Origin: Alphaproteobacteria bacterium
Lineage (GTDB): Bacteria > Pseudomonadota > Alphaproteobacteria > CACIAM-22H2
Length of the DNA: 64,000 bases
Direction: 5' to 3'
NCBI GenBank assembly: GCA_016124335.1
Contig: WGNX01000009.1
Location: 101,658 to 165,657, forward strand
Shown here piece by piece: positions 2,225 to 22,238 of this stretch. Position 1 is the first letter of the stretch; every line of letters begins with the position of its first letter. The notes below the pieces were generated by a model that saw nothing but the letters and a program-made list of their open reading frames with translations, was not told the origin of the DNA and did no database searches. The position numbers and the translations under genes were made by a program.

Positions 2225-2262
2225 GCGCTTTCCACCCCCGCCTGATCCGCCAAACCACTATC

Positions 2263-3574: not shown

Positions 3575-3784
3575 ATGCCCGTCGGTAAGGTCAAGTGGTT
3601 CAATGGCACCAAAGGTTACGGCTTTATCCAGCCGGAAAGCGGCGGTGCGGACGTGTTCGTGCATATCTCGGCGGTCGAGCGCGCCGGGCTTCGCGGGCTC
3701 AATGAAGGCCAGAAGGTGTCGTACGAAGAAAAGCCCGACCCCAAGAAGGGCAAGACGGCGGCGGACAACCTGAAGCTGGTCTGA
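3575..3784 (+). CDS. cspA: Cold-shock protein, CspA family
   Basis: [34 protein letters not shown] carries the RNP1/RNP2 motifs; 69 aa. Confidence 0.95.
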
Positions 3785-3864
3785 CGACGGTTCCCCGAAC
3801 GCGCGGAACCGAAGCGCTGCGGCTACAGCCCGGCGCCCTCCTTCCGATCGTGGGCATTGTTCGT

Positions 3865-3905
3865 GCGCGCCTCGCTCCTGCCGGAGCGGGGCGCGTTGCG
3901 TTTAT
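3865..3905 (+). terminator. Candidate intrinsic terminator downstream of the csp gene
   Basis: An imperfect GC-rich inverted repeat GCGCGCCTCGCTCC-TGCC-GGAGCGGGGCGCG, followed by TTGCGTTTAT. Confidence 0.35.
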
Positions 3906-3992
3906 GGGCCCATGCATGGCGCCGTCTTGATCGATCCGGCGCCGGTGTGACAGACAGTATGCGCACGCCCGCACCCTCAGCATGGATGTAGG

Positions 3993-5209: not shown

Positions 5210-5213
<4 letters not shown>
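3993..5213 (+). CDS. hutI: Imidazolonepropionase
   Basis: Amidohydrolase metal ligands DCHTHLVY and KLHADQL, 406 aa; its stop overlaps the hutU start (ATGA). Confidence 0.9.
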
Positions 5214-6874
<1,661 letters not shown>

Positions 6875-6962: not shown

Positions 6963-8504
6963 ATGCGCATCCGTCTTGCTCTGTTCGCGGTCCTGCTGGC
7001 CTGTGCCGGCGAAGCATCGGCAGCCGATCTTCGCGTCGGCGTGGCGAGCGAGCCGACCTATATCGACCCGCACGCCCAGGAACTCGGCGTCAATATCGAC
7101 GTGCGCATGCACATCTTCGACTCGCTCGTGCGAATCGGCGACCGCGAAGAACTGCTTCCCGGTCTCGCCGAAAGCTGGCGGCTGGCCGAAGCCCCGCTGG
7201 TGTGGGAGTTCAAGCTGCGCGCCGGCGCGGTCTTCCATGACGGCGCACCGGTCACGGCCGAAGATGCCGCCTTCTCGATCGCGCGCGCACCGGCGGTGCC
7301 TGGCGCACCTTCCACCTACAGCCGGCACCTGCGAAGCATCGACAAGGTGGAGGTCGTCGATGCATTGACGCTTCGCGTGCGCACGAAGATGCCCAACCCG
7401 CTTCTGCCTGCAAACCTTGCCCATATTGCGGTCGTCGACCGTCGCATCGGCCCGAATGCCGCGCCAAGCGCCTTTCTATCCGGTGCCGCGGCAAACGGCA
7501 CCGGCCCGTACCGGTTCGTCGAATTCGTGCCGGGCGAGCGGCTCGTTCTTCAGGCGAACCCGCGTTATTGGGGACCAAAACCGCGCTGGGACCGCGTGAC
7601 GTTTCGTGCGCTCAAGACGCCGGCCGCCAGGCTTGCCGCGCTTTTGACAGGCGAAGTCGACGCGATCAGCGAAGTCCCGACGAACGATGTCGAGAAACTT
7701 TCGCACGACAAGCGCTTCGTGCTTTCCAAAGGCGTGTCGAACCGCATCATGTTCTGGGCGATGGATACGTCGCGCGAAACGACACCGTTTGCGACCGCAC
7801 GCGACGGCAAGCCCATCGCCAACCCGTTCCGAGACAAGCGTGTGCGCGAAGCCGTGGCGCTGGTCATCGACAAGCCTGCACTTGTCGACCGGCTGATGGA
7901 GGGGCTGGCCGTCGTCGCGAACCAGATCCCGCTCGAAGGCCATAACGGCTACATCGCGAACCTGAACACGCCGAAGGCCGATCTGCCGCGTGCGCGCAAG
8001 CTGATGGCCGAGGCCGGCTATGCCGACGGCTTCAAGCTCACCATCCACACGACGAACGGCCGCTACGTCAACGACGTGAACCTGGCGCAGGCCGTCGCGC
8101 AGATGCTTTCCCGCCTCAACATCGAAGTGTCCGTCCAGCCCATGCAGGTCGCGACCTATTTCACGCAGGCGCGGAACCGCGAATTCACGTTCCTTCAGGT
8201 CGGCTGGGGCCACAGTTCGACCGACCCGCTCCTCGTCATGCGCGAGACTTTCCATTCGAAGGCGGCGAACAACTATGGCAGCTGGTCGAACGCGACTGTC
8301 GACCGGCTCCTCGATACCGCCGAGACCGAACTGGACTTCGCCAAGCGTCAGGAGGAAATCGCCGAAGTCACCCGCATATCGAATGCCGAAGCCGTGATCG
8401 TTCCCACGCACTATCAGGTCAATGTCTGGGTCTCGAAGCGTGGCATCCGCTACGTGCCGCGGCGCGACGAGACGACGCTGGCCGACAATTTCCGCGCCGA
8501 ATAG
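6963..8504 (+). CDS. ABC transporter substrate-binding protein, family 5 (peptide/nickel/opine type), orphan with no adjacent permease or ATPase
   Basis: Signal peptide MRIRLALFAVLLACAGEASA; 513 aa with SBP_bac_5-like composition. No other transporter genes sit beside it. Confidence 0.8.
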   Translation: MRIRLALFAVLLACAGEASAADLRVGVASEPTYIDPHAQELGVNIDVRMHIFDSLVRIGDREELLPGLAESWRLAEAPLVWEFKLRAGAVFHDGAPVTAEDAAFSIARAPAVPGAPSTYSRHLRSIDKVEVVDALTLRVRTKMPNPLLPANLAHIAVVDRRIGPNAAPSAFLSGAAANGTGPYRFVEFVPGERLVLQANPRYWGPKPRWDRVTFRALKTPAARLAALLTGEVDAISEVPTNDVEKLSHDKRFVLSKGVSNRIMFWAMDTSRETTPFATARDGKPIANPFRDKRVREAVALVIDKPALVDRLMEGLAVVANQIPLEGHNGYIANLNTPKADLPRARKLMAEAGYADGFKLTIHTTNGRYVNDVNLAQAVAQMLSRLNIEVSVQPMQVATYFTQARNREFTFLQVGWGHSSTDPLLVMRETFHSKAANNYGSWSNATVDRLLDTAETELDFAKRQEEIAEVTRISNAEAVIVPTHYQVNVWVSKRGIRYVPRRDETTLADNFRAE

Positions 8505-8505: not shown

Positions 8506-9570
8506 TCAGGCGAACAGCGATTTCTCGTCGATTTCGCACGCAAGGCGATAAAGATAATCGCCGCGCCTCACGAGTGCGGGCACGCGCTTGACCAGTACGA
8601 TCCCGTCGTGCGCGAACTCGGCCGCAAGTGACGGACGATCGAGTTCACCGAGCGGATGCACGTAACCGGCCAGCGTACCCTTGCGCACTTCGGCGCCCAC
8701 CTCGTGGAGCGGTTCGAAAATGCCATCGGTCGGCGACATGACCGACGATTGGGCACCCAGCGGCGACACGAGCCGGGTCGAATGCATATGCCCGGCAGGC
8801 GCTTCGCCATCCATGACGCCAAAATGCACGAGGAGCCGCGTTAGGCCGGCCCGTCCGATCTCGAGTGCCGCCGGATCGATCGTGCCGCCGCCGGCAAGCT
8901 CGGTCGAGATCATCGGCACGCCCAGCCGATCGCAGGCCGCCGACATCGAGCGGCTGTCCGAAGTGGCCTTCGCGCAGACGGTATAGGGCGCGCCGAACGC
9001 GCGCGCGCCGGCCAGCTTGCGGCGCAGCAGATCGGCCCCGCCGCCGCAATGGAGATAGACGCTCGGCGCATAGACGGTGGCGCTGCCGCCCGAGTGGATG
9101 TCGACCGCACCCTGCGACATCGCCAACAGGACGGTCTCGGCATAGTGCGCGATCGCTGCGGTGGGCGAGCCGTCGGCGTCACCTGGAAAAGCCCTGTTCA
9201 GATTGCCGTCATCGAGCGGGGAAACGCGCGCGGCGGCCAGGACTGCCGGATAGTTGAGTGCCGGAAGCACGATAAGCCGGCCTCGCACGCGTTTGGGGTC
9301 GAGCGTCCGGGCAAGGCGATGCAGCAAAGCCTGCCCTTCATACTCGTCGCCATGATTGCCCGCCGTAAGCAGAATTGTCGGCCCCGCACCGTTCGCGATG
9401 ACGGCAATCGGGATCGGGATCGTGCTGAATGCGTGGCGGTTGTCGGAATGGATCAGCCGCAGGTAGCCCAGCTGCCGGCCCGGCCTGTCATATTCGATAT
9501 CGGTGGTAATGCGTGTCGGCGTTAGGCCCATGGCTCCATCTCCGGCGCTGGTCGCCTGCCGAGCGTACAT
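8506..9570 (-). CDS. Succinylglutamate desuccinylase/aspartoacylase (M14-like zinc carboxypeptidase) family protein
   Basis: GNHGDEYEG zinc-binding motif and ...IHSGG; the start may instead be the internal ATG at 9531. Confidence 0.75.
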   Translation of the reverse strand: MYARQATSAGDGAMGLTPTRITTDIEYDRPGRQLGYLRLIHSDNRHAFSTIPIPIAVIANGAGPTILLTAGNHGDEYEGQALLHRLARTLDPKRVRGRLIVLPALNYPAVLAAARVSPLDDGNLNRAFPGDADGSPTAAIAHYAETVLLAMSQGAVDIHSGGSATVYAPSVYLHCGGGADLLRRKLAGARAFGAPYTVCAKATSDSRSMSAACDRLGVPMISTELAGGGTIDPAALEIGRAGLTRLLVHFGVMDGEAPAGHMHSTRLVSPLGAQSSVMSPTDGIFEPLHEVGAEVRKGTLAGYVHPLGELDRPSLAAEFAHDGIVLVKRVPALVRRGDYLYRLACEIDEKSLFA

Positions 9571-9754
9571 GCAATTGGGAAGGAAGGAATACCGGCGCGC
9601 ATATGAGACACCTTAATCGGCGCATGAAGGTCGCGCCGGATTCATGAATACCTTCAACCTTTTTGGCTTGCGGGCACGCTTGTGAAGGTTCGTAATTTCG
9701 GCTGGCACAAAGCCTGCAGAATTCGAAGGCTTCACCGCCAGCCAGGAAGCCAGA

Positions 9755-12109
9755 ATGCAATCCGGATCCTCCGGCCATCCGACAAAGGTTGAAATCGGTC
9801 GACGCGAACGGCGGATCGAGGATTCGCGCCTGCTTCGCGGAGAGGCGGAGTTTCTGGCCGACATTTCCGACGACGGCGTCCTGCACGGGGTCGTCGTCCG
9901 ATCGCCCCATGCGCATGCGCTCATCCGCTCGATCGACGCCGCCGCCGCGGCCAAATTGCCTGGCGTCAGGCTTGTCCTGACCGGCGCCGATCTCGACACG
10001 CTGCCCGTCAAGCCGATCAGCGCATTCGGCCCGGCGACGCTTGCCGGCAAGCCGGTTGCGGTGGATGCGCCGCCCTACGAACTTCTCGCACGCTCGCGGG
10101 TGCGCCATGTCGGCGAACCGGTTGCCTTCGTCGTGGCCGAAACCGAGGCGACGGCGCTCGAGGCAGCGGAATGTGTCGCCATCGACTACGAGCCGCTCGA
10201 CGCGGCGATCGCGCCCGACGACGAACACGCAATGCTCGGCTTCGAGACCGAACTGGGCGATCCGGCCGCCGCAGACGCCGCTTTCGCGAAGGCGGATCGT
10301 GTGGTCGAAATCGACGTCGTCAACCAGCGCGTCGCCGCCGTTCCGCTGGAGCCGCGTGGCGCCCAGAGCGAAGTCGACGGTAAGCGTGTCATCCTGCGGA
10401 CCGGCACACAGGCACCGCACCTGCTGCGACGCGTCCTGGCCAAGGACGTGTTCGGATGGCCGGAGGAAAAGCTGCGCGTGATCGTCCCCGACACGGGCGG
10501 CGGATTTGGCGCGAAGGCCCCCGTCTATCGCGAGCAAGGGCTCGTGGTCTGGGCGGCGATCTGCACCGGCCGCCCCGTGCGCTGGCTGTCGTCGCGCACC
10601 GAGGCGTTCCAGTCGGACACGGCGGGCCGCGACATGCGATCGCGCATCGCGCTTGCACTGCGCGCGGATGGCAAGATCCTGGCACTGCGCGCACGCATCG
10701 ACGCCAATCTTGGCGCGTACCTCTCGTATTTCGGCGGCGTACCGGCAAATATCGGTCTTGCGGGCCTTGTCGGCGCCTATGCGATCGCGTGCGTCGATAT
10801 CCGCTCGCGCGGCTATTTCACGAATACGTTGCCGGTGGATGCCTATCGCGGCGCCGGCCGCCCCGAAGCGATCTATGCGATCGAGCGCGCCATCGACAAG
10901 GCTGCCCACGAATTGGGCTTGGCACCCGACGAAATGCGCAAGCGCAATCTCGTGCCGCGCGAAGCGATCCCCTACCGCACGCCGGTTGGCACGCTCTACG
11001 ACAGCGGGGATTTCGTCGGGAGCGTCGAACGTCTGACAGCGCTCGCCGATACGCGCGGATTTCCCGCGCGCCGTGCGATGGCGCGCGCGCGCGGCAGGCT
11101 GCTCGGTCTCGGCATCGCCTATTATATCGAACGGGCAGCCGGCGGCGCCGAAGAAGCCGCGCGCATCGTTCTCGACCACGAGGGCGGCGCTGACGTGATG
11201 ATCGGCACGATGCCCGCCGGCCAGGGCCACGTCACCGCCTATACGCAGATCGTCGCCGACCGGCTCGGCCTTGATCCGGCGCGCATCCGTATCCATCAGG
11301 GCGATACCGACATCGTGACACGCGGTGTCGGCACCTTCGGCTCGCGTTCGCTTCCGGTCGGCGGGTCGGCATTGCGCCGCGCGGTCGAACGGATGATCGA
11401 GATTCTGCACCCTTACGCGAGCGACCATCTCGAGGCCGCGACAGCCGATGTCGAGTTCCAGAATGCACGCTTTGTCGTTGCCGGGACGGACCGCAGCGTC
11501 GACGTCGCGAATCTCGCCGCTGCGCTTCATCGCAAGGTTGGCATCGGCGGCCTGCCCCGGCTGCCCGGCAGTCTCGGCGTGGATCTCTCTGCCGAAGGCG
11601 CGTTCCAGCCCGCCGAACCGACATTTCCAAACGGTTGCCATGCGTGCGAAATCGAGATCGACCCCGAGACGGGCGAAGCGACGCTCAGCCGCTATTGCGC
11701 GGTCGACGATTTCGGGAACGAGATAAATCCCATGCTCGTGGACGGCCAGCTCCATGGCGGCATCGCGCAAGGCATCGGCCAGGCACTTCTGGAAGCCGTC
11801 GTCCACGATCCGCACGGGCAGATCCTGACCGGCTCGCTCATGGATTATGCGATGCCGCGGGCGGCCGACATGCCCGATCTGGTCCTCGCGCGAAACCCGG
11901 ATCCCTGCCGCAACAATCCGCTCGGGCTCAAGGGATGTGCCGAGGCGGGTGCCGTGTGTGCGCCGCCGGCCGTTATCAACGCCGTGCTCGACGCACTCGC
12001 GCCGTTGGGCGTCGAGGCGATCGACATGCCTGCCACGCCACAGGCGATCTGGAAAGCAATCCAGCGTGCGCGAACCGAAACGAAAGTGCGGGAGCGCGCC
12101 GATGTCTGA
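9755..12109 (+). CDS. Xanthine dehydrogenase/CoxL-family molybdopterin-binding large subunit, with no cognate FeS or FAD subunit genes nearby
   Basis: 784 aa; N-terminal ...RRIEDSRLLRGEAEFLADI... ; C-terminal GCAEAGAVCAPPAVINAVLDAL. Family recognition only. Confidence 0.85.
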   Translation: MQSGSSGHPTKVEIGRRERRIEDSRLLRGEAEFLADISDDGVLHGVVVRSPHAHALIRSIDAAAAAKLPGVRLVLTGADLDTLPVKPISAFGPATLAGKPVAVDAPPYELLARSRVRHVGEPVAFVVAETEATALEAAECVAIDYEPLDAAIAPDDEHAMLGFETELGDPAAADAAFAKADRVVEIDVVNQRVAAVPLEPRGAQSEVDGKRVILRTGTQAPHLLRRVLAKDVFGWPEEKLRVIVPDTGGGFGAKAPVYREQGLVVWAAICTGRPVRWLSSRTEAFQSDTAGRDMRSRIALALRADGKILALRARIDANLGAYLSYFGGVPANIGLAGLVGAYAIACVDIRSRGYFTNTLPVDAYRGAGRPEAIYAIERAIDKAAHELGLAPDEMRKRNLVPREAIPYRTPVGTLYDSGDFVGSVERLTALADTRGFPARRAMARARGRLLGLGIAYYIERAAGGAEEAARIVLDHEGGADVMIGTMPAGQGHVTAYTQIVADRLGLDPARIRIHQGDTDIVTRGVGTFGSRSLPVGGSALRRAVERMIEILHPYASDHLEAATADVEFQNARFVVAGTDRSVDVANLAAALHRKVGIGGLPRLPGSLGVDLSAEGAFQPAEPTFPNGCHACEIEIDPETGEATLSRYCAVDDFGNEINPMLVDGQLHGGIAQGIGQALLEAVVHDPHGQILTGSLMDYAMPRAADMPDLVLARNPDPCRNNPLGLKGCAEAGAVCAPPAVINAVLDALAPLGVEAIDMPATPQAIWKAIQRARTETKVRERADV

Positions 12110-13154
12110 TGTTTCCCTGCGTGCCGTCAGCAAGAACTATGGAAGCCATACGGCACTGCGGACGCTCGATCTCGACATCGCGCAGGGTGAATTCCTCACG
12201 CTGCTCGGGCCGTCGGGCTGCGGCAAGACGACGACGCTGCGCCTGATCGCCGGTTTCATCGATCCGACGGCAGGGCGCATCTATTTCGGGCGCGACGACG
12301 TGACCGATCTGCCACCGCAAAAGCGCGAGATCGGAATGGTGTTCCAAGACTATGCCCTGTTCCCGCATCTGACGATCGCCGACAATATCGGCTTCGCCCT
12401 TGTCGAGCGCGGCCGCAAACCGGCCGAGATCGAGAAGCGCGTGACAGAGCTTCTCAACCTCATCCGGCTTCCCGGTGCCGAAAACCGCTTTCCCGCGGAA
12501 CTGAGCGGCGGGCAGCAGCAGCGTATCGCCGTCGCGCGGGCGGTCGCGCATTCGCCGCGCGTGCTCTTGATGGACGAACCGCTCGGTGCCCTCGATCTCA
12601 AGCTGCGCGAGGCCATGCAGGCCGAGATCAGCGCCATCCAGCGCACGCTGCGCATCACGACGGTCTATGTCACTCACGACCAGAGCGAGGCGATGAGCAT
12701 GTCCGATCGCATCGCGGTGATGAACGACGGACGCATCGAACAGCTCGGCACGGCGGTCGATATCTACAACAGGCCCGCGTCGAGCTTCGTGGCGGGGTTC
12801 GTCGGGCAGATCAATCTCATCGCCGGCGAGGTCGCGGCGGGAGCCGTGGTCGCGGGCGGCCAGCGGATCCGCGTGAGTGGGTCCGTGCCGCCGTCTGGGG
12901 CCGTTACGCTCGGCATCCGCCCCGAACAGCTGCGCGTCGTGGAACCCGGCCTTATCGTAAGCGACGAATTCGACGCGCTGGACGGCATCGTCCGGTCGAC
13001 GATGTTCGCCGGCTCGGTCATCAAGGTCGAGGTCGATGCCGGCCTTTCCGCGCCGCTGCTGGTGGAAATGCATCCGGACGCACCCGCCGTCGCCGCCGGG
13101 GAGCGGGTGCGCATTTCGTGGCGCGTGACGAGCGCCACGATCCTGGCGAGTTGA
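12102..13154 (+). CDS. ABC transporter ATP-binding protein, PotA/spermidine-putrescine-type (with a TOBE domain)
   Basis: Walker [10 protein letters not shown], signature [14 protein letters not shown], Walker [12 protein letters not shown]. Its ATG at 12102 overlaps the stop of the upstream gene by 8 nt. Confidence 0.9.
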
Positions 13155-13165
13155 AGGAGATCAAC

Positions 13166-14149
13166 GTGAAAACCGCCTCGGTCGGCATTCCTGTCGTTGA
13201 TATCGCCGCCTTCCGCGATGGCTCCGACAAGGCGAGCGTCGCAAAGTCGGTCGCGCGCGCCTGCGAGGAAGTCGGATTCTTCTGCATATCGGGCCACGGG
13301 ATCGAACCCGCCTTGACGCAGCGCGCTTTCGAGGTATCGCGCGCGTTCTTCGATCAGCCCACCGACATCAAGATGCGCGCGCGTCCGCAGGGCGAAGTCG
13401 CACCCCGTGGCTACGCGGCGATGGAATCGAAGGGTCTGGGTGCCACGCTCGGCCAGAACGTTCCCAAGGACCTGCGCGAACAGTTCATGCTGGGCACGCT
13501 CGATCCGATTGTCGCCAAGCTTGCCGACGTGCCGGAGGCCATCGGTTGCTACGCGCCGAACGTGTGGCCCGAAACGCCGACCGACTACCGTCCGGTCTTC
13601 ACGCGGCTCTACCGCGAATTCGAATCGCTGGCCGCCACGCTCATGCGGATTTTCGCGATCGGACTCGACCTGCCGGAGGATTATTTCGCCGACAAGATCG
13701 ACCATCATTTCAGCGTCCTCGGCTCGAACCACTATCCGCCGCTTTCCCAACCGCCGCTTCCCGGGCAACTGCGCACCGGCGAGCACACCGATTTCGGCAG
13801 CCTGACGATCCTGCTGCCGACCGCCGGGCCCGGCGGCCTTCAGGTGCGTCTTGCGGACGGAACGTGGACGGACGTCCAGCCGATTCCGGGCGCGCTCATC
13901 ATCAATATCGGCGACATGATGGCGCGCTGGACGAACGACCGGTGGCGCTCGACGCTGCACCGCGTTGCAAACCCACCTGAAGCCGCCGCCGCGATGAGCC
14001 GACGGCAGTCGATCGCCTTCTTCTGCCATCCGAACTACGACACCGAGATCCGCTGCATCGAAAGCTGCACAGGGCCAGGACGCCCGGCACTTTATCCGCC
14101 AATTCTCGCCGGCGAGCACATGCGCATGAAAATGGTGAAACGGCTTTGA
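13166..14149 (+). CDS. 2-oxoglutarate/Fe(II)-dependent oxygenase, isopenicillin-N-synthase-like family
   Basis: HTDFGSLTILL (HxD), ...TLHRV, and an N-terminal IPVVDIAAF...FFCISGHGI. GTG start preceded by a perfect AAGGAGA Shine-Dalgarno. Confidence 0.85.
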   Translation: MKTASVGIPVVDIAAFRDGSDKASVAKSVARACEEVGFFCISGHGIEPALTQRAFEVSRAFFDQPTDIKMRARPQGEVAPRGYAAMESKGLGATLGQNVPKDLREQFMLGTLDPIVAKLADVPEAIGCYAPNVWPETPTDYRPVFTRLYREFESLAATLMRIFAIGLDLPEDYFADKIDHHFSVLGSNHYPPLSQPPLPGQLRTGEHTDFGSLTILLPTAGPGGLQVRLADGTWTDVQPIPGALIINIGDMMARWTNDRWRSTLHRVANPPEAAAAMSRRQSIAFFCHPNYDTEIRCIESCTGPGRPALYPPILAGEHMRMKMVKRL

Positions 14150-15528
14150 GCCTCGGCGAGGACATCGCGCGCTGGTCGGCGTCGCTTCGGTTCGAGGATC
14201 TTCCCGCGGCGGTGGTCGCGGATTGCCGCCTGCGGCTTCTCGATACGCTGGGCGTGGCGATCGCGGCGGTCGATCTGCCGATCGGCATGGCGGCCCGCAA
14301 CGCGGGCGCCGCGCTCGGCGGCGGCGACGAGGCGACCATTCTTGGCGACGGAACGCGCAACACGGCTGCGAATGCGGCACTTGTCAACGGCACTCTCGCA
14401 CATGCGATGGATTTCGACGACACGCACAACGAATCGGTCATGCATCCAAGCGCGCCAAGCGTTGCGGCGGCACTGGCCGGTGCCGAAGCATGCGGGGCCG
14501 ACGGCCGCGAACTGATCGTCGCGATCGCGATCGGAAACGAACTCGGATGCCGCTTTGGCCTCATTTCGCCGGGTGCGTTCCATGGCGTCGGCATTCATCC
14601 GACAAGCGCGCTCGGCATGCCGGCCGCCACGGCGGCGGTCGGACGGCTGTGGCGGTTGACGGCTGAAGAGACCGTTTGCGCCTTCGGGATATCGGCAAGT
14701 CAGGCTTCCGGCGTGCTGGAAGCCTATGCGGACGGAACCTGGTCGAAGACGCTGCATCCGGGCTGGGCCGCACACGCCGCGATCGTCGCCTGCCGCCTTG
14801 CGCAGGCTGGCTTCACCGGCCCCGCGAGCGCCTTCGAAGGTCGCTATGGTCTCTATCGGGCGCTTTTGCCCGCAGATACGAAATTCGATTTCGCCGCAGG
14901 GACGCGCGATCTCGGTTCGATCTGGGTCGCTCCGCAGACCGCCTTCAAGCTTTACCCGTGCGCCCACTCGATCCATGCATTCGTCGAAGGGGCTCTCGAC
15001 CTTCGGCGGCGCCACGCGATCGATCCGGCGCGGATTTCGGCCATCGAACTCGATGTTCCGGCCGAATTCGCCGGGCAGATATCCGAGCCGCGCGACGCCA
15101 AGATTGCGCCGCGCACCTCGACGCACGCCCGCGCGAGCCTTTTTTATGCCGTTGCCGCCGCGATCGTGGACGGCGCGCTCGGCAACGCCCATTACGAGGG
15201 CCGGGAATTCGAGCGACCTGACGTGCTGGCGATGGCGCGCAGGGCGATTGCGAAGACGGTACCGACCGGCGACGCGATCCGTTTTTCGGGCGGCGTGCGC
15301 ATCCGTCTCGTCGACGGCACGATGCACGAAACCTTCGTGGCCGAAGCTGACGGGACGGGCTCGCGCCTGCTGGACGAGACGCGCGTGCTGGCGAAGTTCA
15401 TGGCCTGCGCTTCACCGGTTCTCGGGCCAACCGGCGCCGAACGGCTCGCGGCATTGGCATTGTCGGCGGAAAAGCTGCGTGCCGTGCGCGAACTTGCCGT
15501 AGCGACGGCGCCTGGCAGGACCGCATGA
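14146..15528 (+). CDS. MmgE/PrpD family protein (2-methylcitrate dehydratase / cis-aconitate decarboxylase / IDS-epimerase superfamily)
   Basis: 460 aa, with the characteristic N-terminal LRFEDLP...L.DTLGVAIAA. Its start overlaps the upstream stop (ATGA). Confidence 0.8.
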   Translation: MSLGEDIARWSASLRFEDLPAAVVADCRLRLLDTLGVAIAAVDLPIGMAARNAGAALGGGDEATILGDGTRNTAANAALVNGTLAHAMDFDDTHNESVMHPSAPSVAAALAGAEACGADGRELIVAIAIGNELGCRFGLISPGAFHGVGIHPTSALGMPAATAAVGRLWRLTAEETVCAFGISASQASGVLEAYADGTWSKTLHPGWAAHAAIVACRLAQAGFTGPASAFEGRYGLYRALLPADTKFDFAAGTRDLGSIWVAPQTAFKLYPCAHSIHAFVEGALDLRRRHAIDPARISAIELDVPAEFAGQISEPRDAKIAPRTSTHARASLFYAVAAAIVDGALGNAHYEGREFERPDVLAMARRAIAKTVPTGDAIRFSGGVRIRLVDGTMHETFVAEADGTGSRLLDETRVLAKFMACASPVLGPTGAERLAALALSAEKLRAVRELAVATAPGRTA

Positions 15529-16010
15529 CGGGCCATCGCATCATTCGTGCCGAACCGCTCGACGAACCGGCGTTTCGCGCGTTCGGCTTCATCCTCGACG
15601 TGCCGTGCGACGGCAGGCGGACCGGGCCGGTCCCGGTCATCGCCGACCGACGCCCTTCCGCCACGATTACGGCAAATCTCATCGATCTGCCTGCACAAAA
15701 CGGCCGCCGCACGGTTTCACAGGTCGAGCGACACCTGCATGGCGCGCAGTTCTTCCTGCACTTGTCCGGCGGCCCGGTATCGTTGGTGGTGTTTCCCGCG
15801 GATTCCGGCGGTCGCGCCGACCTTGCGCGCGCATGCGCCTTCGTTGCCGCGCCGGGTCAGGCGTTCGGATATCATCCCGGCACGTGGCATGCGGGCGTTG
15901 CCGCCCTTTCCGAGCGCGCGGCGGTCGCCTCGCTTCTCGCCCGCGACGGCACCGCAGGCGATGTCGAGGAAGCGATGCTTGCCGAACCGATCGAGGTGGA
16001 CTGGACATGA
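15525..16010 (+). CDS. Ureidoglycolate lyase (AllA)-like cupin protein
   Basis: 161 aa; MTGHRIIRAEPLDEPAFRAFGFIL ... GTWHAG matches the AllA-family profile. 4-nt overlap with the upstream gene. Confidence 0.7.
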   Translation: MTGHRIIRAEPLDEPAFRAFGFILDVPCDGRRTGPVPVIADRRPSATITANLIDLPAQNGRRTVSQVERHLHGAQFFLHLSGGPVSLVVFPADSGGRADLARACAFVAAPGQAFGYHPGTWHAGVAALSERAAVASLLARDGTAGDVEEAMLAEPIEVDWT

Positions 16011-16924
16011 GCGAGCCCCCCTATCCGCGCGATCTTGTCGGCTACGGCCGGAACCGGCCTGACCCGCGCTGGCCCGGCCGGGCGCGCCTCGCGCTCAATT
16101 TCGTCCTCAACTACGAGGAAGGCTCGGAATATTCGATCCCCGATGGCGACGGCGCGTCGGAAACCCAGTTGCTTGAGGCGACGCCGTCGATGCCGCCCGG
16201 CGTGCGCGACATGAATGCGGAATCGATCTACGAATACGGCAGCCGCGTCGGTTTCTGGCGGCTCATCGACATTCTCGGCGAATTCGGCGCGACCGCGACG
16301 GTCTTCGGCTGCGCGCTGGCGCTCGAGCGAAATCCGCAGGCGGCCGCCGCGATCAAGGCCGCCGGCTTCGACGTTTGCAGTCACGGATGGCGATGGATCA
16401 AGCACTGGCTGTTGAAGCCCGAGGAGGAAGCCGAGCACATCAGGCGTGCGGTCGCCTCGCTTTCAAAGAGCTTCGGCGAGCGGCCGCTGGGCTGGTATTG
16501 CCGCACGGGCCCGAGCGTCAACACGCGCAAGCTCGTCGTGGAAGAAGGTGGCTTCCTTTATGACAGCGACTCCTACGCCGACGAGCTTCCCTACTGGGAC
16601 ACAAGCCACGGCCGGCCGCATCTCGTCATCCCCTATTCGGTCGACACGAACGACACGAAATTCGCGAACCCCGCCGGCTTCGGCAACGGCGACGAATTCT
16701 TCGCCTATCTCAAGGACAGTTTCGACTGCCTTTACCGCGAGGGTGCAAGACACCCGGGCATGATGTCGGTCGGCCTGCATATGCGCCTCGCCGGCAGGCC
16801 GGGGCGCGCCGAAGCTTTCCGCCGCTTTCTGGACTACGTGAAGCGACACGACGGCGTCTGGATCTGCCGACGCGCCGACATTGCCCGCCACTGGATCGCG
16901 ACGCATCCCTGCAAGCCCACGTGA
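16007..16924 (+). CDS. Polysaccharide deacetylase-family cyclic-amide hydrolase, allantoinase PuuE-like
   Basis: MSEPPYPRDLVGYGRNRPDPRWPG...LNFVLNYEEGSE is the PuuE-type N-terminus; 305 aa. The track ORF 15605..16924 is a frame fusion. Confidence 0.75.
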   Translation: MSEPPYPRDLVGYGRNRPDPRWPGRARLALNFVLNYEEGSEYSIPDGDGASETQLLEATPSMPPGVRDMNAESIYEYGSRVGFWRLIDILGEFGATATVFGCALALERNPQAAAAIKAAGFDVCSHGWRWIKHWLLKPEEEAEHIRRAVASLSKSFGERPLGWYCRTGPSVNTRKLVVEEGGFLYDSDSYADELPYWDTSHGRPHLVIPYSVDTNDTKFANPAGFGNGDEFFAYLKDSFDCLYREGARHPGMMSVGLHMRLAGRPGRAEAFRRFLDYVKRHDGVWICRRADIARHWIATHPCKPT

Positions 16925-16931
16925 GGAAACG

Positions 16932-18284
16932 ATGACCGAAGATACCCGTTGGGCCCGCCGCCCCTTGAGCGGCTACGACGTGCGGCTTCCCGTCGCCGAG
17001 GACGCCGAACTAACGCATGTCGATCCCGGCACGCCGGGAGGCGAATATCTGCGCCGCTTCTGGACGCCTGTCGCCATGACCACACAACTTGGCGCCCGCC
17101 CCGTGCCGATCCGGATCTTCGGGGAAGACCTCGTGATCTTCCGCGACGGCGCCGGCCGCATCGGTCTGCTGCATCGGCATTGCGCGCATCGCCGCGCGTC
17201 GCTGGAGTTCGGCCGTATCGAAGAACGCGGCATCCGCTGCTGCTATCACGGCTGGCACTTCGACGTGGACGGAACGATCCTTGAAACGCCCGGCGAACCG
17301 CCGACGAGCAAGATCTGCGGATCCATATGCCAGCCCGCCTACCCGGTTCGCGAATTGAAAGGTCTCGTCTTCGCGTACATGGGGCCGCCCGGCGAAATCC
17401 CGGCTTTTCCCTATCTCGACTCATTCGATCTGCCGGATCACGAACTGATCCCCTATTCCATCCATTCGCCCTGCAACTGGTTGCAGGAGACCGAAAACGC
17501 GATCGATCCCTTCCACTCCGTCTTCCTGCACGGGCGGGTGAACGGGCCGCAGTTTCCGGGCCTCGAGCATTTCGTTGAATTGCCGGTCGTCAATTATTCG
17601 CGGCGCGATGCCGGCATCGTCTACAGCCATGCGCGGCGCGTGGGCGATCTCGTGATGCTGCGTTTCCACGACTACCTGATGCCCAACCTCGCCCAGAACG
17701 GCGGCATGTTCCAGAAGCTGGAAAAGCCGAAATTCTTCGGCCGCACGAGCCTGACGAAGTGGGTCGTGCCGGTCGACAACACGAACAGCCGCAAGTTCGG
17801 CTGGCGGCATTTCAACGACAAGGACGAGGTGCTGCGGCAGGGCAAGCGCGACGAGGTCGGCTGGGAAACGGTCGATTTCTATGGCCAGACCGCGCACCGC
17901 TCCTACGAGGAAAGGCAGGGCAATCCCGGCGACTGGGACGTTTGGGTGAGCCAGGGACCCATCGCCGTCCATGGGCGCGAATATCTCGGCAAGACCGACG
18001 AGGGGATCGCGATGCTGCGCCGGAAGCTGCGCCGCGATATTCGCGCGGTCGCCGCGGGCGAGAAGATCGCGCAGGTCGGCGGTACGCCGGAGAATCCCTA
18101 TCCCACATATGGTGGAGATACGGTGCTACGGGTCGCCAAGTCGAACGACGACGAGGCACTGATGCGCGGGCTCCAGCAACAGGTGGCCGAAATCTATTTC
18201 GCCGCCGACGGCCTGAAGGGCGAAGAGCGGAGCGCGCGTATCAAGGCGGATCTCAAAGCGAAGTTCCCGGACTCCGCTGGTTAG
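16932..18284 (+). CDS. Rieske [2Fe-2S] non-heme iron oxygenase, alpha (catalytic) subunit
   Basis: Rieske CAHRRASLEFGRIEERGIRCCYHGWHF (CxH-x17-CxxH); 450 aa with a GAGGAA RBS. No beta or reductase partner adjacent. Confidence 0.85.
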   Translation: MTEDTRWARRPLSGYDVRLPVAEDAELTHVDPGTPGGEYLRRFWTPVAMTTQLGARPVPIRIFGEDLVIFRDGAGRIGLLHRHCAHRRASLEFGRIEERGIRCCYHGWHFDVDGTILETPGEPPTSKICGSICQPAYPVRELKGLVFAYMGPPGEIPAFPYLDSFDLPDHELIPYSIHSPCNWLQETENAIDPFHSVFLHGRVNGPQFPGLEHFVELPVVNYSRRDAGIVYSHARRVGDLVMLRFHDYLMPNLAQNGGMFQKLEKPKFFGRTSLTKWVVPVDNTNSRKFGWRHFNDKDEVLRQGKRDEVGWETVDFYGQTAHRSYEERQGNPGDWDVWVSQGPIAVHGREYLGKTDEGIAMLRRKLRRDIRAVAAGEKIAQVGGTPENPYPTYGGDTVLRVAKSNDDEALMRGLQQQVAEIYFAADGLKGEERSARIKADLKAKFPDSAG

Positions 18285-18325: not shown

Positions 18326-19072
18326 TCAGACGACGCTGCGCCTCGGCAACGGAATATGTTCGATGGGCGTATCGCCGAAACGTTCGTAACCTTCGGCGAG
18401 TGCAAGCTCCTTCGCCACGATCATGCCGTCGCCCTGGATGCCATGGGTCGGATCGAGCATTCGCCGCCCCTTCGTTCCGGGCGGATCGAACGTCCACTCC
18501 TGGAAACCGAGAATGTAGAAATTCAGCATCACCGCCGGCTTGCCGTCGGCGCAGAACCAGTGGGCATTCTTCGAAACCTCCGTCGTCTCGAACCTGTCGC
18601 CGATGCCAAACCACCTGTCGGTGCGCGTACGCAGCAGGATCGTGTCCGGCCCGAGCCGCGCCACGCGATCCCACTCGCGCGCATAGACCCGGCCGTGGAG
18701 AACGACCTGCGTGGAGATCAGGTTGTGATGGCAGTGCGGCGGATGGACTTCGTTCGGCTCGAGATAGAGAAGCTGCATGGTCCACGAGCGCTCGGGTGTG
18801 GTCTTCTGGTTGAGGATCTGATCCTTGCGTTCGGCGAGCGCGCGCTCGATCCACGGCCTGAGCTCGTCCGTCAGATCGAGCGAGTGATGCAGATCGCGGA
18901 TTCGGTCGATGTATTCATCCGGCGTGATCTCGTGCCTGGCGAGACGCTCGATCTGGGCCTGCGCATCCGCCCAAAGACGTTCATGATAGGAGTCGATATC
19001 GGGCAGGATGGCGCCAGCCCGGGTATTCATCTTTACGATCTTCCCCGAAGCGGTCTTGATCTCGCCGGCCAT
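18326..19072 (-). CDS. Hypothetical cupin-like protein, co-oriented immediately downstream of the Rieske oxygenase
   Basis: Histidine-rich cupin-like motif EVHPPHCHHNLISTQVVLHGRV. The start was chosen at MAGEIK to avoid a 32-nt overlap with the upstream gene. Confidence 0.5.
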   Translation of the reverse strand: MAGEIKTASGKIVKMNTRAGAILPDIDSYHERLWADAQAQIERLARHEITPDEYIDRIRDLHHSLDLTDELRPWIERALAERKDQILNQKTTPERSWTMQLLYLEPNEVHPPHCHHNLISTQVVLHGRVYAREWDRVARLGPDTILLRTRTDRWFGIGDRFETTEVSKNAHWFCADGKPAVMLNFYILGFQEWTFDPPGTKGRRMLDPTHGIQGDGMIVAKELALAEGYERFGDTPIEHIPLPRRSVV

Positions 19073-19085: not shown

Positions 19086-20309
19086 TCAGCGCGCGCTGCC
19101 GCCGACCATCGTGTCAACGAGCATGTTCTGGAAGTGATGGACGTTCTTTTCCCAGACGGGGGAAAAGACGACCTTGTCGGCGACCGGTGACTGGCGCGCG
19201 ATCTGCTGCTGCTCCCAGATCTTCATGTCCTGGCTGCGGATGCCGCCATAGTCGCGAAGCTTGCCGGTCTCGCCGAGCCAGCGTGAGAGCGTGCGCTTGC
19301 GCTGGCTGGCGAACTCCGGCGCAGTCGCCGCTTCGCCGACGAAGAAGAAGCCCATTTTCGACACCGTCCTGTCGGCGGCCACGGGATCGGCGATCACGGA
19401 GGCGAGGTGATCGGATTGCAGCGTCAGCGTCATGTTCGGGAAGACCACGCTCGTGCAGCGGACGCGCTTCTTGCCTTCCGGGAACGGGATGGCCGGCAGA
19501 TCGCCCACGGCCGGATAGAAGTCCTGGTCGCCGCGCCGCTTGAGCGTCACGACGGTGCCAAGCGGGATCGGCTCGGCAACCGGCTGGCCGGTCTCCATGT
19601 CGAGATCGTCCGACATTTTCGTGAAGACGTTCTTGTGGACCCAGACGTGGTGATAGGTCTCCCAGTTGTCGTTCTGCATTTTCCAGTTTCCGCTCCACGC
19701 CCAATCCTCGCGGTGGGCGATGCGCGTGGCGCCGAGATCGGCGCCCTGGATGAGTTCCTCGAGCGGGCGCACATGCTCTTCGAAGGTCGGCGCGTTGCCA
19801 TCGATATTGATGAAGACCCAATGGTGCCAGACCGCCGTGCGCACGGGTACGAGCCCGAGTTCGCCCAGATCGAGATTCGTGCGCTCGTTACCGCCCTTCG
19901 TGCCGTCGAAATACGGCGTCGACTTGAGCCTGCCGTCGAGATCGTAGGCCCATGCATGATAAGGGCACGAGAACTGCTTCAGATTTGAGCAGGGTTCGGT
20001 CACCATCATGGCGGCACGATGCCGGCAGACATTGTGAAAGACGCGGATCGTTCCGGCCCGGTCGCGAACGAGGATGAGCGGCAATCCGGCGGCCATGAGC
20101 GGGATTGCATCACCGGGATTGGGCACGTCGCTCGCGAAAGCGAGGCACATCCACGTGCGCGCGAACAGTTTCTTCTGTTCGAGGCGGAAAAACGCGTCGC
20201 TGGTATAGGCAAGCGCCGGCAATCCGCAAGCTTCGCCAATCGGTTTGCGAAGTCTGTCGATCGCTTCGGCACCGAGAATTTCGGCTACCGTCGATTCCGC
20301 AAGCGCCAT
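19086..20309 (-). CDS. Rieske non-heme iron oxygenase alpha subunit, glycine-betaine-demethylase (GbcA)/carnitine-monooxygenase-like
   Basis: Rieske CRHRAAMMVTEPCSNLKQFSCPYHAW; mononuclear Fe site NDNWETYHHVWVH; 407 aa. Confidence 0.8.
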   Translation of the reverse strand: MALAESTVAEILGAEAIDRLRKPIGEACGLPALAYTSDAFFRLEQKKLFARTWMCLAFASDVPNPGDAIPLMAAGLPLILVRDRAGTIRVFHNVCRHRAAMMVTEPCSNLKQFSCPYHAWAYDLDGRLKSTPYFDGTKGGNERTNLDLGELGLVPVRTAVWHHWVFINIDGNAPTFEEHVRPLEELIQGADLGATRIAHREDWAWSGNWKMQNDNWETYHHVWVHKNVFTKMSDDLDMETGQPVAEPIPLGTVVTLKRRGDQDFYPAVGDLPAIPFPEGKKRVRCTSVVFPNMTLTLQSDHLASVIADPVAADRTVSKMGFFFVGEAATAPEFASQRKRTLSRWLGETGKLRDYGGIRSQDMKIWEQQQIARQSPVADKVVFSPVWEKNVHHFQNMLVDTMVGGSAR

Positions 20310-20515: not shown

Positions 20516-21370
20516 ATGAAGGCGCGGTGGCAACTCGTGCTGCTGCCCTCGCTGCTGCTCTCGATGCTGCTGCTCGCGGCATCGCAGTTCGCCTTTCTGC
20601 GTGGCAGCTTCTTCAAGGACCTCCGGCTCGGTCGGCTCGGCGCGGACCTGACGATCGAGAACTATGTCCGCTTCTTCACCGACAGCCTCTATCTCGACTC
20701 GCTGCTTCTGACGGTCCGGCTGTCCGCGACGGTGGCATTGCTCACGCTCGTCATCGGATATCCAGTCGCCTACATCCTGGCGCGCATGCGCTCGCGCTGG
20801 TCGCTCGTGCTGCTTGCCGCGATCATCGCGGCGTCGTTCATCACGATCGTGATCAAGGTCCTGGGACTAATCATCATCTTTTCGAGCGGCGGCACGCTGA
20901 ACCGGCTTCTTCTCGCATCGGGCCTGATTGCCAAGCCGCTCACGATCATGGGGCAGACATCGGGCGTCGTCGTCGGCCTCATGCACTTCACGATGGGATT
21001 CGCGGTCCTGCTCCTCTACGGGGTCGTGCGTACAATCCCCCGCTCGCTCGAAGAGGCGGCGGAAGTTCACGGCGCGCCGCGCTGGCGCGTCTTCCAGCGG
21101 ATCATCATCCCGCTGAGCCTGCCCGGGATCGCGGTCACGTTCCTCATCGTCTTCAACCTGTGCATGGGGGCTTTCACGTCGGCGGCGCTCATCGGCGGGG
21201 GCAAGGTGTTCACGCTTCCGGTCCTGATCCAGCAGACCGTGATCATGCAGACGCGCTATGCGATGGGTGCGACGATCTCGGTCGTCCTTATGGTCGTCAC
21301 GCTGCTCATCAACGCGCTGTCGGTCGTGCTGATGGCGCGCCTTGACCGGCGAAAGACGGCCGTCGCATGA
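20516..21370 (+). CDS. ABC transporter permease, PotB-like
   Basis: 6-TM permease with EAA-like motif RSLEEAAEVHGA. The track ORF 20105..21370 over-extends the 5' end. Confidence 0.85.
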   Translation: MKARWQLVLLPSLLLSMLLLAASQFAFLRGSFFKDLRLGRLGADLTIENYVRFFTDSLYLDSLLLTVRLSATVALLTLVIGYPVAYILARMRSRWSLVLLAAIIAASFITIVIKVLGLIIIFSSGGTLNRLLLASGLIAKPLTIMGQTSGVVVGLMHFTMGFAVLLLYGVVRTIPRSLEEAAEVHGAPRWRVFQRIIIPLSLPGIAVTFLIVFNLCMGAFTSAALIGGGKVFTLPVLIQQTVIMQTRYAMGATISVVLMVVTLLINALSVVLMARLDRRKTAVA

Positions 21371-22206: not shown

Positions 22207-22238
22207 CCGATCAATCACACGACAACAGGAGGCATGCG

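Follow-up and report, generated by a model that had tools for sequence, protein, structure and literature searches.

A seven-gene operon of an alphaproteobacterium, analyzed here, resembles parts of several described catabolic systems. The bacterial ureide branch, as found in Pseudomonas, relies on PuuE and AllA. In the arginine transaminase pathway of Pseudomonas aeruginosa (AruH-AruI-KauB), a transaminase is followed by a 2-keto-acid decarboxylase and an aldehyde dehydrogenase. Ergothioneine is degraded either by a thiol dioxygenase and a desulfinase or by way of ergothionase, thiourocanate hydratase and hydantoin-propionate. Nalivaiko, Vasseur and Seebeck are said to have described in 2024 an iron thiol dioxygenase by which ergothioneine is turned into its sulfinic acid, from which loss of SO2 yields hercynine. 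In Nocardioides simplex, the lumichrome (riboflavin) operon brings together a hydroxylase of the xanthine oxidase family, a Rieske oxygenase, amidohydrolases that open rings, and a split thiamine pyrophosphate (TPP)-dependent enzyme, LumK/LumL, that decarboxylates a heterocyclic acid (PMC12746152). The genes of this actinobacterial cluster, 25 in all, include those for a P450 (LumU), a three-domain xanthine oxidase (LumJ), an alpha/beta Rieske dioxygenase served by a ferredoxin and a reductase of its own, a catechol dioxygenase and the pyrimidine-ring hydrolases LumH, LumI and LumM (PMC12746152). Here we examined a 64,000-nt stretch of the assembly of an Alphaproteobacteria bacterium (contig WGNX01000009.1, positions 101,658 to 165,657; hereafter the window), in which seven plus-strand genes, g1 to g7, lie at positions 9755-18284 (positions are those of the window unless a locus is named).

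In order, these genes encode a CoxL-like molybdopterin hydroxylase large subunit (g1), an ABC transporter ATPase (g2), an Fe(II)/2-oxoglutarate (2OG) oxygenase (g3), an MmgE/PrpD-family protein (g4), a cupin with the fold of the ureidoglycolate lyase AllA (g5), a PuuE-type hydrolase (g6) and the alpha subunit of a Rieske oxygenase (g7). The operon is one arm of a catabolic island of ~30 kb (~8.5-37.8 kb), with hutI and hutU just upstream, in a Tagaea-like (Rhodospirillales) host. Judged from the gene orders of related loci, the operon is a lineage-specific evolutionary fusion of parts of two modules. Overall, the best explanation is a mosaic catabolic island under sigma-54 control, a reading to which we give a probability of about 0.5; a modified-histidine-type substrate is a less likely, tentative guess within it. 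The island is built wholly from known enzyme families and is of a familiar kind, the substrate-inducible catabolic island.

By the genes detected, no characterized cluster appears to match it, and each of the closest analogues, save the lumichrome operon, which was compared by enzyme family, fails on a defining feature that was tested. NCBIfam gave no equivalog match for g1-g5 or g7, searches of PDB sequences returned family-level neighbors only, with the exception of PuuE, and a full-text literature search for this combination of enzyme families found no characterized pathway. A preliminary description of the operon, made from the sequence alone, had likewise known of no such pathway, and none emerged from Pfam, NCBIfam, the PDB or the full-text literature.

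With the ureide branch the operon shares g6, which is ~60% identical to PuuE, and the AllA cupin fold of g5; both proteins would use ureides, cyclic or linear, as substrates and set urea free. However, the scanned ORFs of the window include no genes for uricase, 5-hydroxyisourate (HIU) hydrolase, 2-oxo-4-hydroxy-4-carboxy-5-ureidoimidazoline (OHCU) decarboxylase or allantoicase, and g5 and g6 are coupled to MmgE/PrpD, 2OG oxygenase and Rieske genes. By the published description of the Lum proteins, to which this comparison is limited, the lumichrome operon and the island are alike in enzyme families, but the P450, the three-domain xanthine oxidase, the alpha/beta Rieske enzyme with ferredoxin and reductase, and the catechol dioxygenase have no counterpart in the island. 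As in the AruH-AruI-KauB-type route, an aminotransferase is followed by a TPP-dependent decarboxylase, and a cationic-amino-acid-type binding protein and, in marine relatives, an aldehyde dehydrogenase are present; in contrast to AruI, the decarboxylase is split and ComDE/Ppd-like rather than full-length, and Rieske and SoxBDA-like oxidases are its constant partners. The island resembles the ergothioneine routes, at the level of description only, in its thiol-dioxygenase-fold cupin, betaine-demethylase-like Rieske protein, hydantoin-type hydrolase and adjacent genes for urocanase and imidazolonepropionase. Yet the HutU protein scored 975 bits with the hutU model but only 705 with that of thiourocanate hydratase (cut-off 930) and 718 with that of S-methyl-thiourocanate hydratase (cut-off 880), no ergothionase was seen, and the cupin is ADO/PCO-like, with only remote similarity to characterized thiol dioxygenases. 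Caffeine degradation (CdhABC with TmuM/H/D), which had been suggested for comparison, did not match either: the window offers a lone large subunit, and the flavin adenine dinucleotide (FAD)-dependent trimethylurate monooxygenase and the HIU/OHCU-type families were not found in the Pfam and NCBIfam scans. The homarine hom operon was considered and set aside as flavin-based and unrelated.

Spurious long open reading frames (ORFs) are abundant in the window, whose GC content is ~65%; genes were picked by calling based on GC content at third codon positions (GC3). ORF length alone is unreliable here, because an Arg-rich ORF of 881 amino acids arises antisense to g1 (9488-12133, minus strand) as a high-GC artefact. 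GC3-based calling returned exactly seven plus-strand ORFs at 9755-18284, all seven with the GC3-rich codon pattern typical of real genes, and independent gene calls on an identical Logan contig gave the same boundaries. The seven tightly packed, co-directional ORFs of the preliminary description were thus recovered, and all seven of its family labels agree with Pfam, whose thresholds were exceeded in every case. The genes g1 and g2 overlap by 8 nt (ATGTCTGA), the junctions g3|g4, g4|g5 and g5|g6 are overlaps of 4 nt each, and gaps of 11 nt and 7 nt separate g2 from g3 and g6 from g7, respectively; the overlaps are as first described (4-8 nt), while the gaps measure 7-11 nt instead of 8-15 nt, a trivial difference. 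The perfect Shine-Dalgarno sequence AAGGAGA noted earlier lies at 13154-13160, in the g2|g3 gap. The start codons of g3 and g4 are GTG and TTG, respectively.

This geometry recurs in 10 Tagaea-type relatives, a conservation check that the preliminary description had called for. The g3|g4|g5|g6 overlaps are -4 in 10 of 10 relatives, g1|g2 is -8 or -1, and g2|g3 is 11-35 nt; because the junctions are kept in these 10 loci, the arrangement is beyond chance. Further, the ratio of non-synonymous to synonymous polymorphism (pN/pS) against three relatives was 0.12-0.52 for all seven genes, with g3, g6 and g7 most constrained, consistent with purifying selection on each of them. A scan for sigma-70-like promoters found none in the scanned region, where terminator-like matches numbered 3 against 8 expected by chance. 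An intrinsic terminator 3' of g7 was considered and rejected, since the site holds only a GC-rich hairpin (-18 kcal/mol, z = -1.5) that is non-significant. It is well supported by these sequence features that the seven ORFs form one conserved, translationally coupled transcription unit, from which we infer co-transcription; the operon status first proposed is borne out by the overlaps, the conserved geometry, the purifying selection and a single conserved promoter.

This promoter is of the sigma-54 type (9703-9718, plus strand; TGGCACAAAGCCTGCA), has the form TGGCAC-N5-CTGCA with -24 GG/-12 GC spacing, and lies 37 nt 5' of the g1 start within the 184-nt region upstream of g1. The pattern TGGCAYN6TGCA has a single exact match in the 64 kb (0.12 expected). 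The motif is invariant and in the same place in 10 of 10 relatives for which the upstream region was available, although its flanks have diverged, and it is kept also in the four loci in which g2, not g1, comes first. Elsewhere in the 563 kb of fetched loci it occurs only twice, once upstream of the g7-like gene of locus L018 (related loci are referred to by number). Control by sigma-54 points to induction when nitrogen is limiting or through a dedicated enhancer-binding protein, and together with the hut neighbors it suggests nitrogen scavenging. A perfect 10-bp palindrome, ATTCATGAAT, is present at 9640-9649 in the window, in place of which the relatives have ATGAG-N5/6-CTCAT repeats, along with a conserved GGATAWTTGCCTTGCR box, ~60-110 nt 5' of the sigma-54 motif; these elements may be activator or IHF sites.

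Comparison with related loci resolved the island into two modules. Module A consists of g1, g3, g4, g6 and a PotABCD-type importer formed by g2 and the genes at 20516-23321, with g5 added in Tagaea. Module B consists of g7, an aminotransferase, a split TPP-dependent decarboxylase, an importer with an SBP_bac_3 (SBP3)-type binding protein, a SoxBDA-like oxidase and an AstE-like deacylase. A cupin gene and a second Rieske gene are positioned between the two.

Orthologues of g4 were found in 17 of 185,579 species representatives (one genome per species), nearly all of them metagenome-assembled genomes (MAGs) of Tagaea sp., other Rhodospirillales and Acetobacterales; annotated plasmids held no close homologue of g4 or g5, the best matches being 42% and 34% identical, respectively. 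In Tagaea, gene order is conserved from the SBP_bac_5 (SBP5) gene upstream of g1 through the TPP genes. In three loci (L007, L009 and L011) the SBP5 and AstE genes are missing along with g1, so that hutI-hutU directly precede the promoter and g2, and a fourth (L012) lacks g1 alone. In five relatives (L002 at 11350-13611, minus strand; L007, L013, L014 and L016) a gene for a BisC-family molybdopterin S/N-oxide reductase (930 bits, cut-off 1018) lies between g7 and the cupin gene; the window has none there. The g3 homologue lies directly 5' of the g4 homologue in every locus that extends upstream, except L018 and L021, and g6 homologues adjoin g4 homologues in L018 and in Minwuia.

The Minwuia sp. 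locus (L030, 5028-16322) is an independent occurrence of module A. Its overlapping genes encode, in order, PhyH, TauD, CoxL, 2OG oxygenase, PrpD, PuuE-like, 2-hydroxyacid dehydrogenase, PotB, PotC and SBP_bac_8 (SBP8) proteins, among which CoxL is 56% identical to g1 and the 2OG oxygenase, PrpD and PuuE-like proteins are 52%, 45% and 57% identical to their counterparts. Next to this operon are genes for a LysR regulator, a Rieske protein and a TAXI-TRAP transporter. The overlap of these four genes in Minwuia favors the joint action of Mo-hydroxylase, 2OG oxygenase, MmgE/PrpD and PuuE-like enzymes that had been proposed from the operon; the initial step then assigned to g1 did not fare as well, since g1 is missing from 4 of 11 Tagaea-type loci.

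Homologues of g7 (63-70% identity; 50% on a Ruegeria plasmid) are always followed by, or adjoin, genes for an aminotransferase and a split TPP enzyme, and the TPP halves are 47-69% identical wherever a g7-type Rieske protein occurs. The order Rieske-aminotransferase-TPP N-terminal half-TPP C-terminal half, with or without the SBP3 ABC importer, SoxBDA and AstE, is found in L003-L005, L023-L025 and Ruegeria (L026), the last on plasmid NZ_CP081104.1 of Ruegeria conchae (722589-739096). These loci usually add permease-SBP3-permease-ATPase-SoxB-D-A, AstE-like, DUF1116 and amidase genes; the string permease-SBP3-permease-(ATPase)-SoxB-D-A follows Rieske-aminotransferase-TPP in L023-L025 and stands beside the cluster in L014-L016, L020 and L026, and AstE-like homologues (38-43% identity) accompany the module in L004, L024 and L026. 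The wider set of L003-L005 and L023-L026 comprises Rieske, aminotransferase, split TPP, AstE-like, aldehyde dehydrogenase (found in the marine versions), DUF1116, amidase, RidA and SoxBDAG genes and two for hypothetical proteins of 210 aa. Its neighbors in Ruegeria are carnitine/butyrobetaine-type CoA genes and a GlxA-type regulator gene. One locus from Acetobacteraceae (L020) holds both importers, the aminotransferase, g7, the cupin, g3 and g4 in one gene string. The operon had first been taken as a functional unit of seven genes; on this comparison the unit is too narrow, as the importer partners, aminotransferase, TPP enzyme, Sox-like oxidase, cupin and others lie outside 9755-18284, and g7, which was grouped with the other genes, belongs to a different and far more widespread module than g3-g6.

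The g1 protein (9755-12109, plus strand; 784 aa) is a form-II CoxL-like molybdopterin hydroxylase large subunit, and a protein from an NCBI MAG with the label "Alphaproteobacteria bacterium" matches it at 100% identity. Ald_Xan_dh_C (PF01315, a/b hammerhead), MoCoBD_1 (PF02738) and MoCoBD_2 (PF20256) all score far above their gathering scores. AYRGAGR is the signature of form-II CoxL, and AYxCSFR is that of true carbon monoxide (CO) dehydrogenases; g1 carries AYRGAGR at residue 363 and has no CSFR. It fell below the cut-off for every NCBIfam equivalog, including that of CO dehydrogenase (485 bits, cut-off 991). Its nearest PDB sequences are CoxL (8uem, E 2.8e-144) and the quinoline oxidoreductase QorL (8e-120), and 6-hydroxypseudooxynicotine dehydrogenase is also near. 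While g1 shares the three-domain large-subunit architecture and AYRGAGR with the CoxL/quinoline 2-oxidoreductase type, the characterized enzymes of that type are heterotrimers of L, M and S subunits encoded together, whereas g1 is an orphan large subunit. Orphans as well are its homologues in Minwuia and Aquibaculum and a second copy in the window, and no CoxS or CoxM gene was found beside the g1 homologues of L002, L010, L013-L016, L030 and L031. Because g1 is absent from the four loci named above (L007, L009, L011 and L012), which retain the promoter and g2-g7, it is unlikely to be an obligatory first step. The idea that g1 is a random insertion was softened in turn, since Minwuia links CoxL, 2OG oxygenase, PrpD and PuuE-like genes.

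The second orphan CoxL/XDH-family large subunit (49899-52052, minus strand; 717 aa) likewise has no small- or medium-subunit genes nearby. Its gene shares 4 nt with a DHDPS-family gene (48943-49902, minus strand) and has a LysR gene (52153-53055, plus strand) as its divergent neighbor. A CoxS/CoxM pair at 49.9-53 kb was ruled out, as this region consists of the second CoxL-like gene and the LysR gene; a long plus-strand ORF at 49878-52118 is an Arg-rich antisense artefact of the former.

The g2 protein (12102-13154, plus strand) is an ABC transporter ATPase with a TOBE domain (Pfam ABC_tran and TOBE_2), PotA/PhnT2-like, whose best NCBIfam scores were to PhnT2 (382 bits, cut-off 458) and PotA (352 bits, cut-off 482). 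Its probable partners are the permeases and binding protein at 20516-23321; in L020 the g2 homologue lies directly 3' of PotB-PotC-SBP8. The 2OG oxygenase g3 (13166-14149, plus strand; DIOX_N and 2OG-FeII_Oxy) has intact motifs, with HTD at residue 207 (HxD...H iron triad) and RQS at residue 280 (RxS, 2OG binding), and in the PDB it comes closest to an ethylene/succinate-forming-type enzyme (E 5.8e-45), followed by thymine 7-hydroxylase (E 6.9e-43). The g4 protein (14146-15528, plus strand; 460 aa) matched both the N- and C-terminal Pfam domains of the MmgE/PrpD family but scored 58 bits on the PrpD equivalog (cut-off 950), and no methylcitrate synthase or lyase gene (prpBC context) was found near it. 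It is a member of the MmgE/PrpD superfamily only and not the 2-methylcitrate dehydratase PrpD; iminodisuccinate epimerase (E 9e-35) and cis-aconitate decarboxylases are its nearest solved structures.

The g5 protein (15525-16010, plus strand; 161 aa) matched Ureidogly_lyase (PF04115) with 64.8 bits against a gathering score of 23, and PDB 2bdr with an E value of 4.9e-9. It fell below the cut-off on all eight NCBIfam models (best 60.5 bits, cut-off 260; AllA cut-offs 160-315), and among the loci compared it is confined to those of Tagaea type. By these scores g5 appears only distantly AllA-like and far from canonical AllA: the fold named in the preliminary description stands, but a canonical AllA, at ~60 bits against 160-315, does not. 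In contrast, g6 (16007-16924, plus strand), a PuuE-type cyclic-ureide hydrolase of the polysaccharide-deacetylase fold, reached 418.9 bits on TIGR03212 (PuuE; cut-off 424.6) and matched the crystallized PuuE of P. fluorescens (PDB 3cl6) over residues 5-302 (E 5e-113, ~60% identity over 298 residues), so that on sequence it is probably an allantoinase or a very close paralogue. Urate-oxidation and allantoicase genes were not detected among the scanned ORFs of the window or of related loci. The alpha-only Rieske non-heme-iron oxygenase g7 (16932-18284, plus strand; 450 aa; Pfam Rieske and weak LigXa_C) has intact motifs, CAHRRASLEFGRIEERGIRCCYH at residue 84 (CxH-x17-CxxH) and ENAIDPFHSVFLH at residue 188 (E-x3-D-x2-H-x4-H). 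It matched a phthalate-dioxygenase-type structure (7fjl, E 1e-48) and NdmA (E 5.5e-14) in the PDB. No reductase or ferredoxin gene for g7 (PDR/VanB or ferredoxin reductase) was found among the scanned window ORFs; on a Methylibium plasmid, a 42% identical g7 homologue does adjoin a PDR/VanB gene.

Downstream of g7 and convergent with it lies the gene for a thiol-dioxygenase-like cupin of the PCO/ADO fold (18326-19072, minus strand; 248 aa). The protein has no Pfam match itself; its family comprises 71 proteins, some with a faint match to PF07847, in which His110, His113, His115, His116 and His171 are invariant. In a Foldseek search with its AlphaFold2 model (predicted local distance difference test score 91), the top 35 PDB matches were all thiol dioxygenases (PCO, ADO, MDO and CDO), with E values down to 9e-9. 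The cupin gene lies directly 3' of the g7 homologue in L020, and its neighborhoods in Plastoroseomonas and another MAG were uninformative. It forms an operon with the gene for the second Rieske alpha subunit (19086-20309, minus strand; Rieske and Ring_hydroxyl_A), the N-terminal half of which is GbcA-like (118.9 bits, cut-off 670).

The importer genes follow on the plus strand and encode a PotB-like permease (20516-21370), a PotC-like permease (21367-22206) and an SBP8 binding protein (22239-23321), as supported by NCBIfam and by gene calls and Pfam on the identical contig; their PDB matches, to P5PA and MotA, were weak. Next come, on the same strand, a PanE/ApbA-type reductase (23336-24310), a HisC-like aminotransferase (24402-25538; hisC model 248 bits, cut-off 276.6) and the split TPP-dependent decarboxylase (25535-26053 and 26050-26613), whose halves gave equal, sub-cut-off scores to sulfopyruvate and phosphonopyruvate decarboxylases. 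A LysR-type regulator gene (26610-27554, minus strand) is followed by one for a second 2OG oxygenase (27646-28629, plus strand), homologues of which adjoin the cluster in L018, L020 and L024. The remaining genes of the island are on the minus strand and, by Pfam and NCBIfam, encode SoxA-like (28995-32219), SoxD-like (about 31892-32125), SoxB-like (32122-33369) and AhpD/CMD-like (33377-34072) proteins, a DAO-type oxidase (34014-35345) and a permease/SBP_bac_3/permease set (35252-37841). The SBP3 protein (36160-36993) matched PDB 9e2b (E 1.5e-91) and then cationic-amino-acid binders, and its top family match was a cystine-binding protein. Directly after this importer, at 37985-41436, a TetR regulator gene is divergent from an efflux module of an HlyD-type membrane-fusion protein and a major facilitator superfamily transporter; a DUF3830 protein gene is next.

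On the other side of the promoter, and divergent from g1, lies an AstE/AspA-family deacylase gene (8506-9570, minus strand; AstE_AspA_cat), which is DoeB-like (248 bits, cut-off 403). It is preceded by the gene for an orphan NikA/Opp-type SBP5 protein (6963-8504, plus strand, as g1) and by hutI (3993-5213, plus strand; 471 bits, cut-off 298) and hutU (5210-6874, plus strand; 975 bits, cut-off 375); by these scores, hutI and hutU are evidently bona fide. A distant N-formylglutamate amidohydrolase-like gene (54065-54958, plus strand; 113 bits, cut-off 279) lies 47 kb from them. The 1.7 kb between a small minus-strand ORF and hutI (~2250-3950) has a weak GC3 coding signal, and the ORFs 2263-3168 and 3104-3574 within it have no Pfam match; this stretch may be non-coding, degenerate or foreign DNA.

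Under the best explanation, the substrate would be imported by the ABC systems, and methyl groups would be removed (or hydroxyl groups introduced) by the Rieske, 2OG and Sox-type oxygenases and oxidases. An amino-acid side chain would be shortened in Ehrlich fashion, by transamination and then TPP-dependent decarboxylation. The ring would be hydroxylated or oxidized by g1, where present, and by g3, and possibly decarboxylated or isomerized by g4; g6 would hydrolytically open a hydantoin- or allantoin-like cyclic ureide, and g5 would release urea or a related fragment. More speculatively, g3 and g4 might oxidize a methyl group to a carboxyl group and then remove it, because thymine 7-hydroxylase with isoorotate decarboxylase offers an analogy and the MmgE/PrpD family has decarboxylase members. 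These reactions are assigned by family analogy, because no enzyme here reaches an equivalog threshold for a characterized step, although g6 comes near that of PuuE.

Our best guess, by the same analogy, is that a ring-bearing, N-methylated, possibly thiolated and nitrogen-rich amino acid would be broken down for nitrogen scavenging. Tentatively, we would place it among modified histidines or imidazole amino acids (ergothioneine, ovothiol, hercynine, N-methyl-histidine or N-acetyl-histidine). This class is ranked first because several features hint at histidine or sulfur chemistry: the adjacent hutIU, the near-HisC aminotransferase, the cationic-amino-acid/cystine-type SBP3 protein, the hydantoin-type hydrolase, the thiol-dioxygenase fold, the S/N-oxide reductase of relatives and the betaine-demethylase-like second Rieske protein. 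A bolder version, which we think improbable, is a hitherto undescribed aerobic pathway that would degrade ergothioneine, ovothiol, hercynine or N-methyl-histidines, in which the ADO-like cupin would remove sulfur, the Rieske, 2OG and Sox enzymes would demethylate, and CoxL, 2OG oxygenase, PrpD and PuuE would oxidize the imidazole and open a hydantoin; module B would then be a widespread unnamed pathway of marine Roseobacters and many uncultured bacteria.

A number of observations weigh against the best explanation. The hints of histidine and sulfur are all sub-threshold or contextual, and no protein here reaches the equivalog threshold for any characterized step, although g6 nearly does. The similarity of the cupin to thiol dioxygenases is at the level of fold only (template-modeling score ~0.53, 10-16% identity). 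Linkage to hut genes is limited to part of Tagaea: none occur in the Minwuia, Acetobacteraceae and marine versions, and in L014-L016 an SBP3 importer takes the place of the upstream hutIU. The aminotransferases of marine module B are only 26-29% identical to that of the window and are perhaps not orthologous. Among the scanned ORFs of the window, moreover, neither hutH (histidine ammonia-lyase) nor ergothionase was seen, and g1 stands without electron-transfer subunit genes, no [2Fe-2S] small or FAD medium subunit (Fer2_2, FAD_binding_5 type) having been found there. No reductase gene was seen in the window for either Rieske protein. An enhancer-binding protein (Sigma54_activat-type) was also absent from the scanned ORFs and may be encoded elsewhere (e.g., NtrC). 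Further, the two modules might share no more than their regulation and each act on a substrate of its own.

Among the alternatives, the preliminary description had proposed that a purine, pyrimidine, pyridine or hydantoin bearing N-methyl groups is degraded in one linear pathway: g1 acts first, demethylation falls to the Rieske and 2OG oxygenases, the ring is opened by PuuE, and AllA sets urea and glyoxylate free. All of the required families are present, homologues of g1, g3, g4 and g6 occur together again in Minwuia, g1 is near the large subunits of quinoline 2-oxidoreductase and 6-hydroxypseudooxynicotine dehydrogenase, g3 resembles thymine 7-hydroxylase, and g7 weakly resembles the caffeine N-demethylases NdmA and NdmB. 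We nevertheless regard this pathway as doubtful. It starts from a protein that 4 of 11 Tagaea-type loci lack and whose [2Fe-2S]/FAD subunit genes were not found, and uricase, HIU hydrolase, OHCU decarboxylase, allantoicase and TmuM-/Cdh-type partners were not found either. Further, it leaves the aminotransferase, split TPP-dependent decarboxylase, cupin and Sox-like oxidase unexplained, and g7 travels with another module.

The sulfur-related hints would also fit an aliphatic amine or amino acid that carries sulfur, such as a derivative of cysteamine, hypotaurine, cysteine, S-methylcysteine, cysteate or N-methyltaurine, degraded by thiol dioxygenation to a sulfinate or sulfonate, transamination, a sulfopyruvate-decarboxylase-like step and N-demethylation by the Sox and Rieske enzymes. 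The thiol-dioxygenase fold of the cupin, TPP halves nearest ComD/ComE, an SBP3 protein whose top family is cystine-binding, the BisC-type S/N-oxide reductase of relatives and the AhpD/CMD-like protein all agree with such a substrate. However, genes for Xsc, a sulfite exporter, sulfite dehydrogenase and CuyA-type enzymes were not seen among the scanned ORFs, the sulfur-related matches are all below family cut-offs, the TPP halves score equally with phosphonopyruvate decarboxylase, and PuuE, the AllA-like protein, CoxL and MmgE/PrpD would have no role, which makes this explanation improbable.

It is decidedly improbable that g5 and g6 are ordinary ureide enzymes (allantoinase and lyase) scavenging nitrogen from allantoin amid unrelated oxygenases, with no single pathway. 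While g6 has ~60% identity to PuuE and falls short of that model's cut-off by no more than 6 bits, and the sigma-54 promoter and adjacent hut genes fit nitrogen-regulated scavenging, no allantoicase or allantoate amidohydrolase was found that could join the two steps, and g5 is far below the AllA cut-offs. Further, the -4 overlaps g4|g5|g6 are kept in 10 of 10 relatives, and PuuE-like genes adjoin PrpD homologues in two other lineages that lack g5. Catabolism of an aminophosphonate (e.g., N-methylated 2-aminoethylphosphonate or phosphonoalanine) by transamination, a phosphonopyruvate-decarboxylase-like step and oxidative C-P chemistry is very improbable: the best model for g2 is PhnT2, the sole NCBIfam match of SBP8 is PhnS2 (E 3.6e-8), the C-terminal TPP half scores 113 bits to phosphonopyruvate decarboxylase and HisC/CobD-family enzymes typically bind phosphorylated substrates, but all phosphonate matches are well below cut-off, PhnX, PhnA, PhnZ, PalA and C-P lyase genes were not seen, and PuuE, AllA, CoxL and PrpD would have no role.

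As it stands, the island is one among many uncharacterized catabolic clusters, and its value is that of a testable lead, for which relatives that have or lack g1, and that have or lack the BisC-like reductase, provide a natural experiment for assigning functions. Interest in it would grow if the roles suggested for the widespread module B or for the orphan CoxL subunits prove right. To our knowledge, form-II CoxL proteins are very common and their functions largely unknown. If the inferred roles are true, the PuuE-type "allantoinase", the MmgE/PrpD enzyme and the lone form-II CoxL would gain a context outside purine, propionate and CO metabolism. Likewise, the module of Rieske oxygenase, aminotransferase, split TPP-dependent decarboxylase and Sox-like oxidase, which keeps 50-70% identity between Rhodospirillales of wastewater and marine Ruegeria, would signal an abundant, unrecognized nitrogen-rich substrate.

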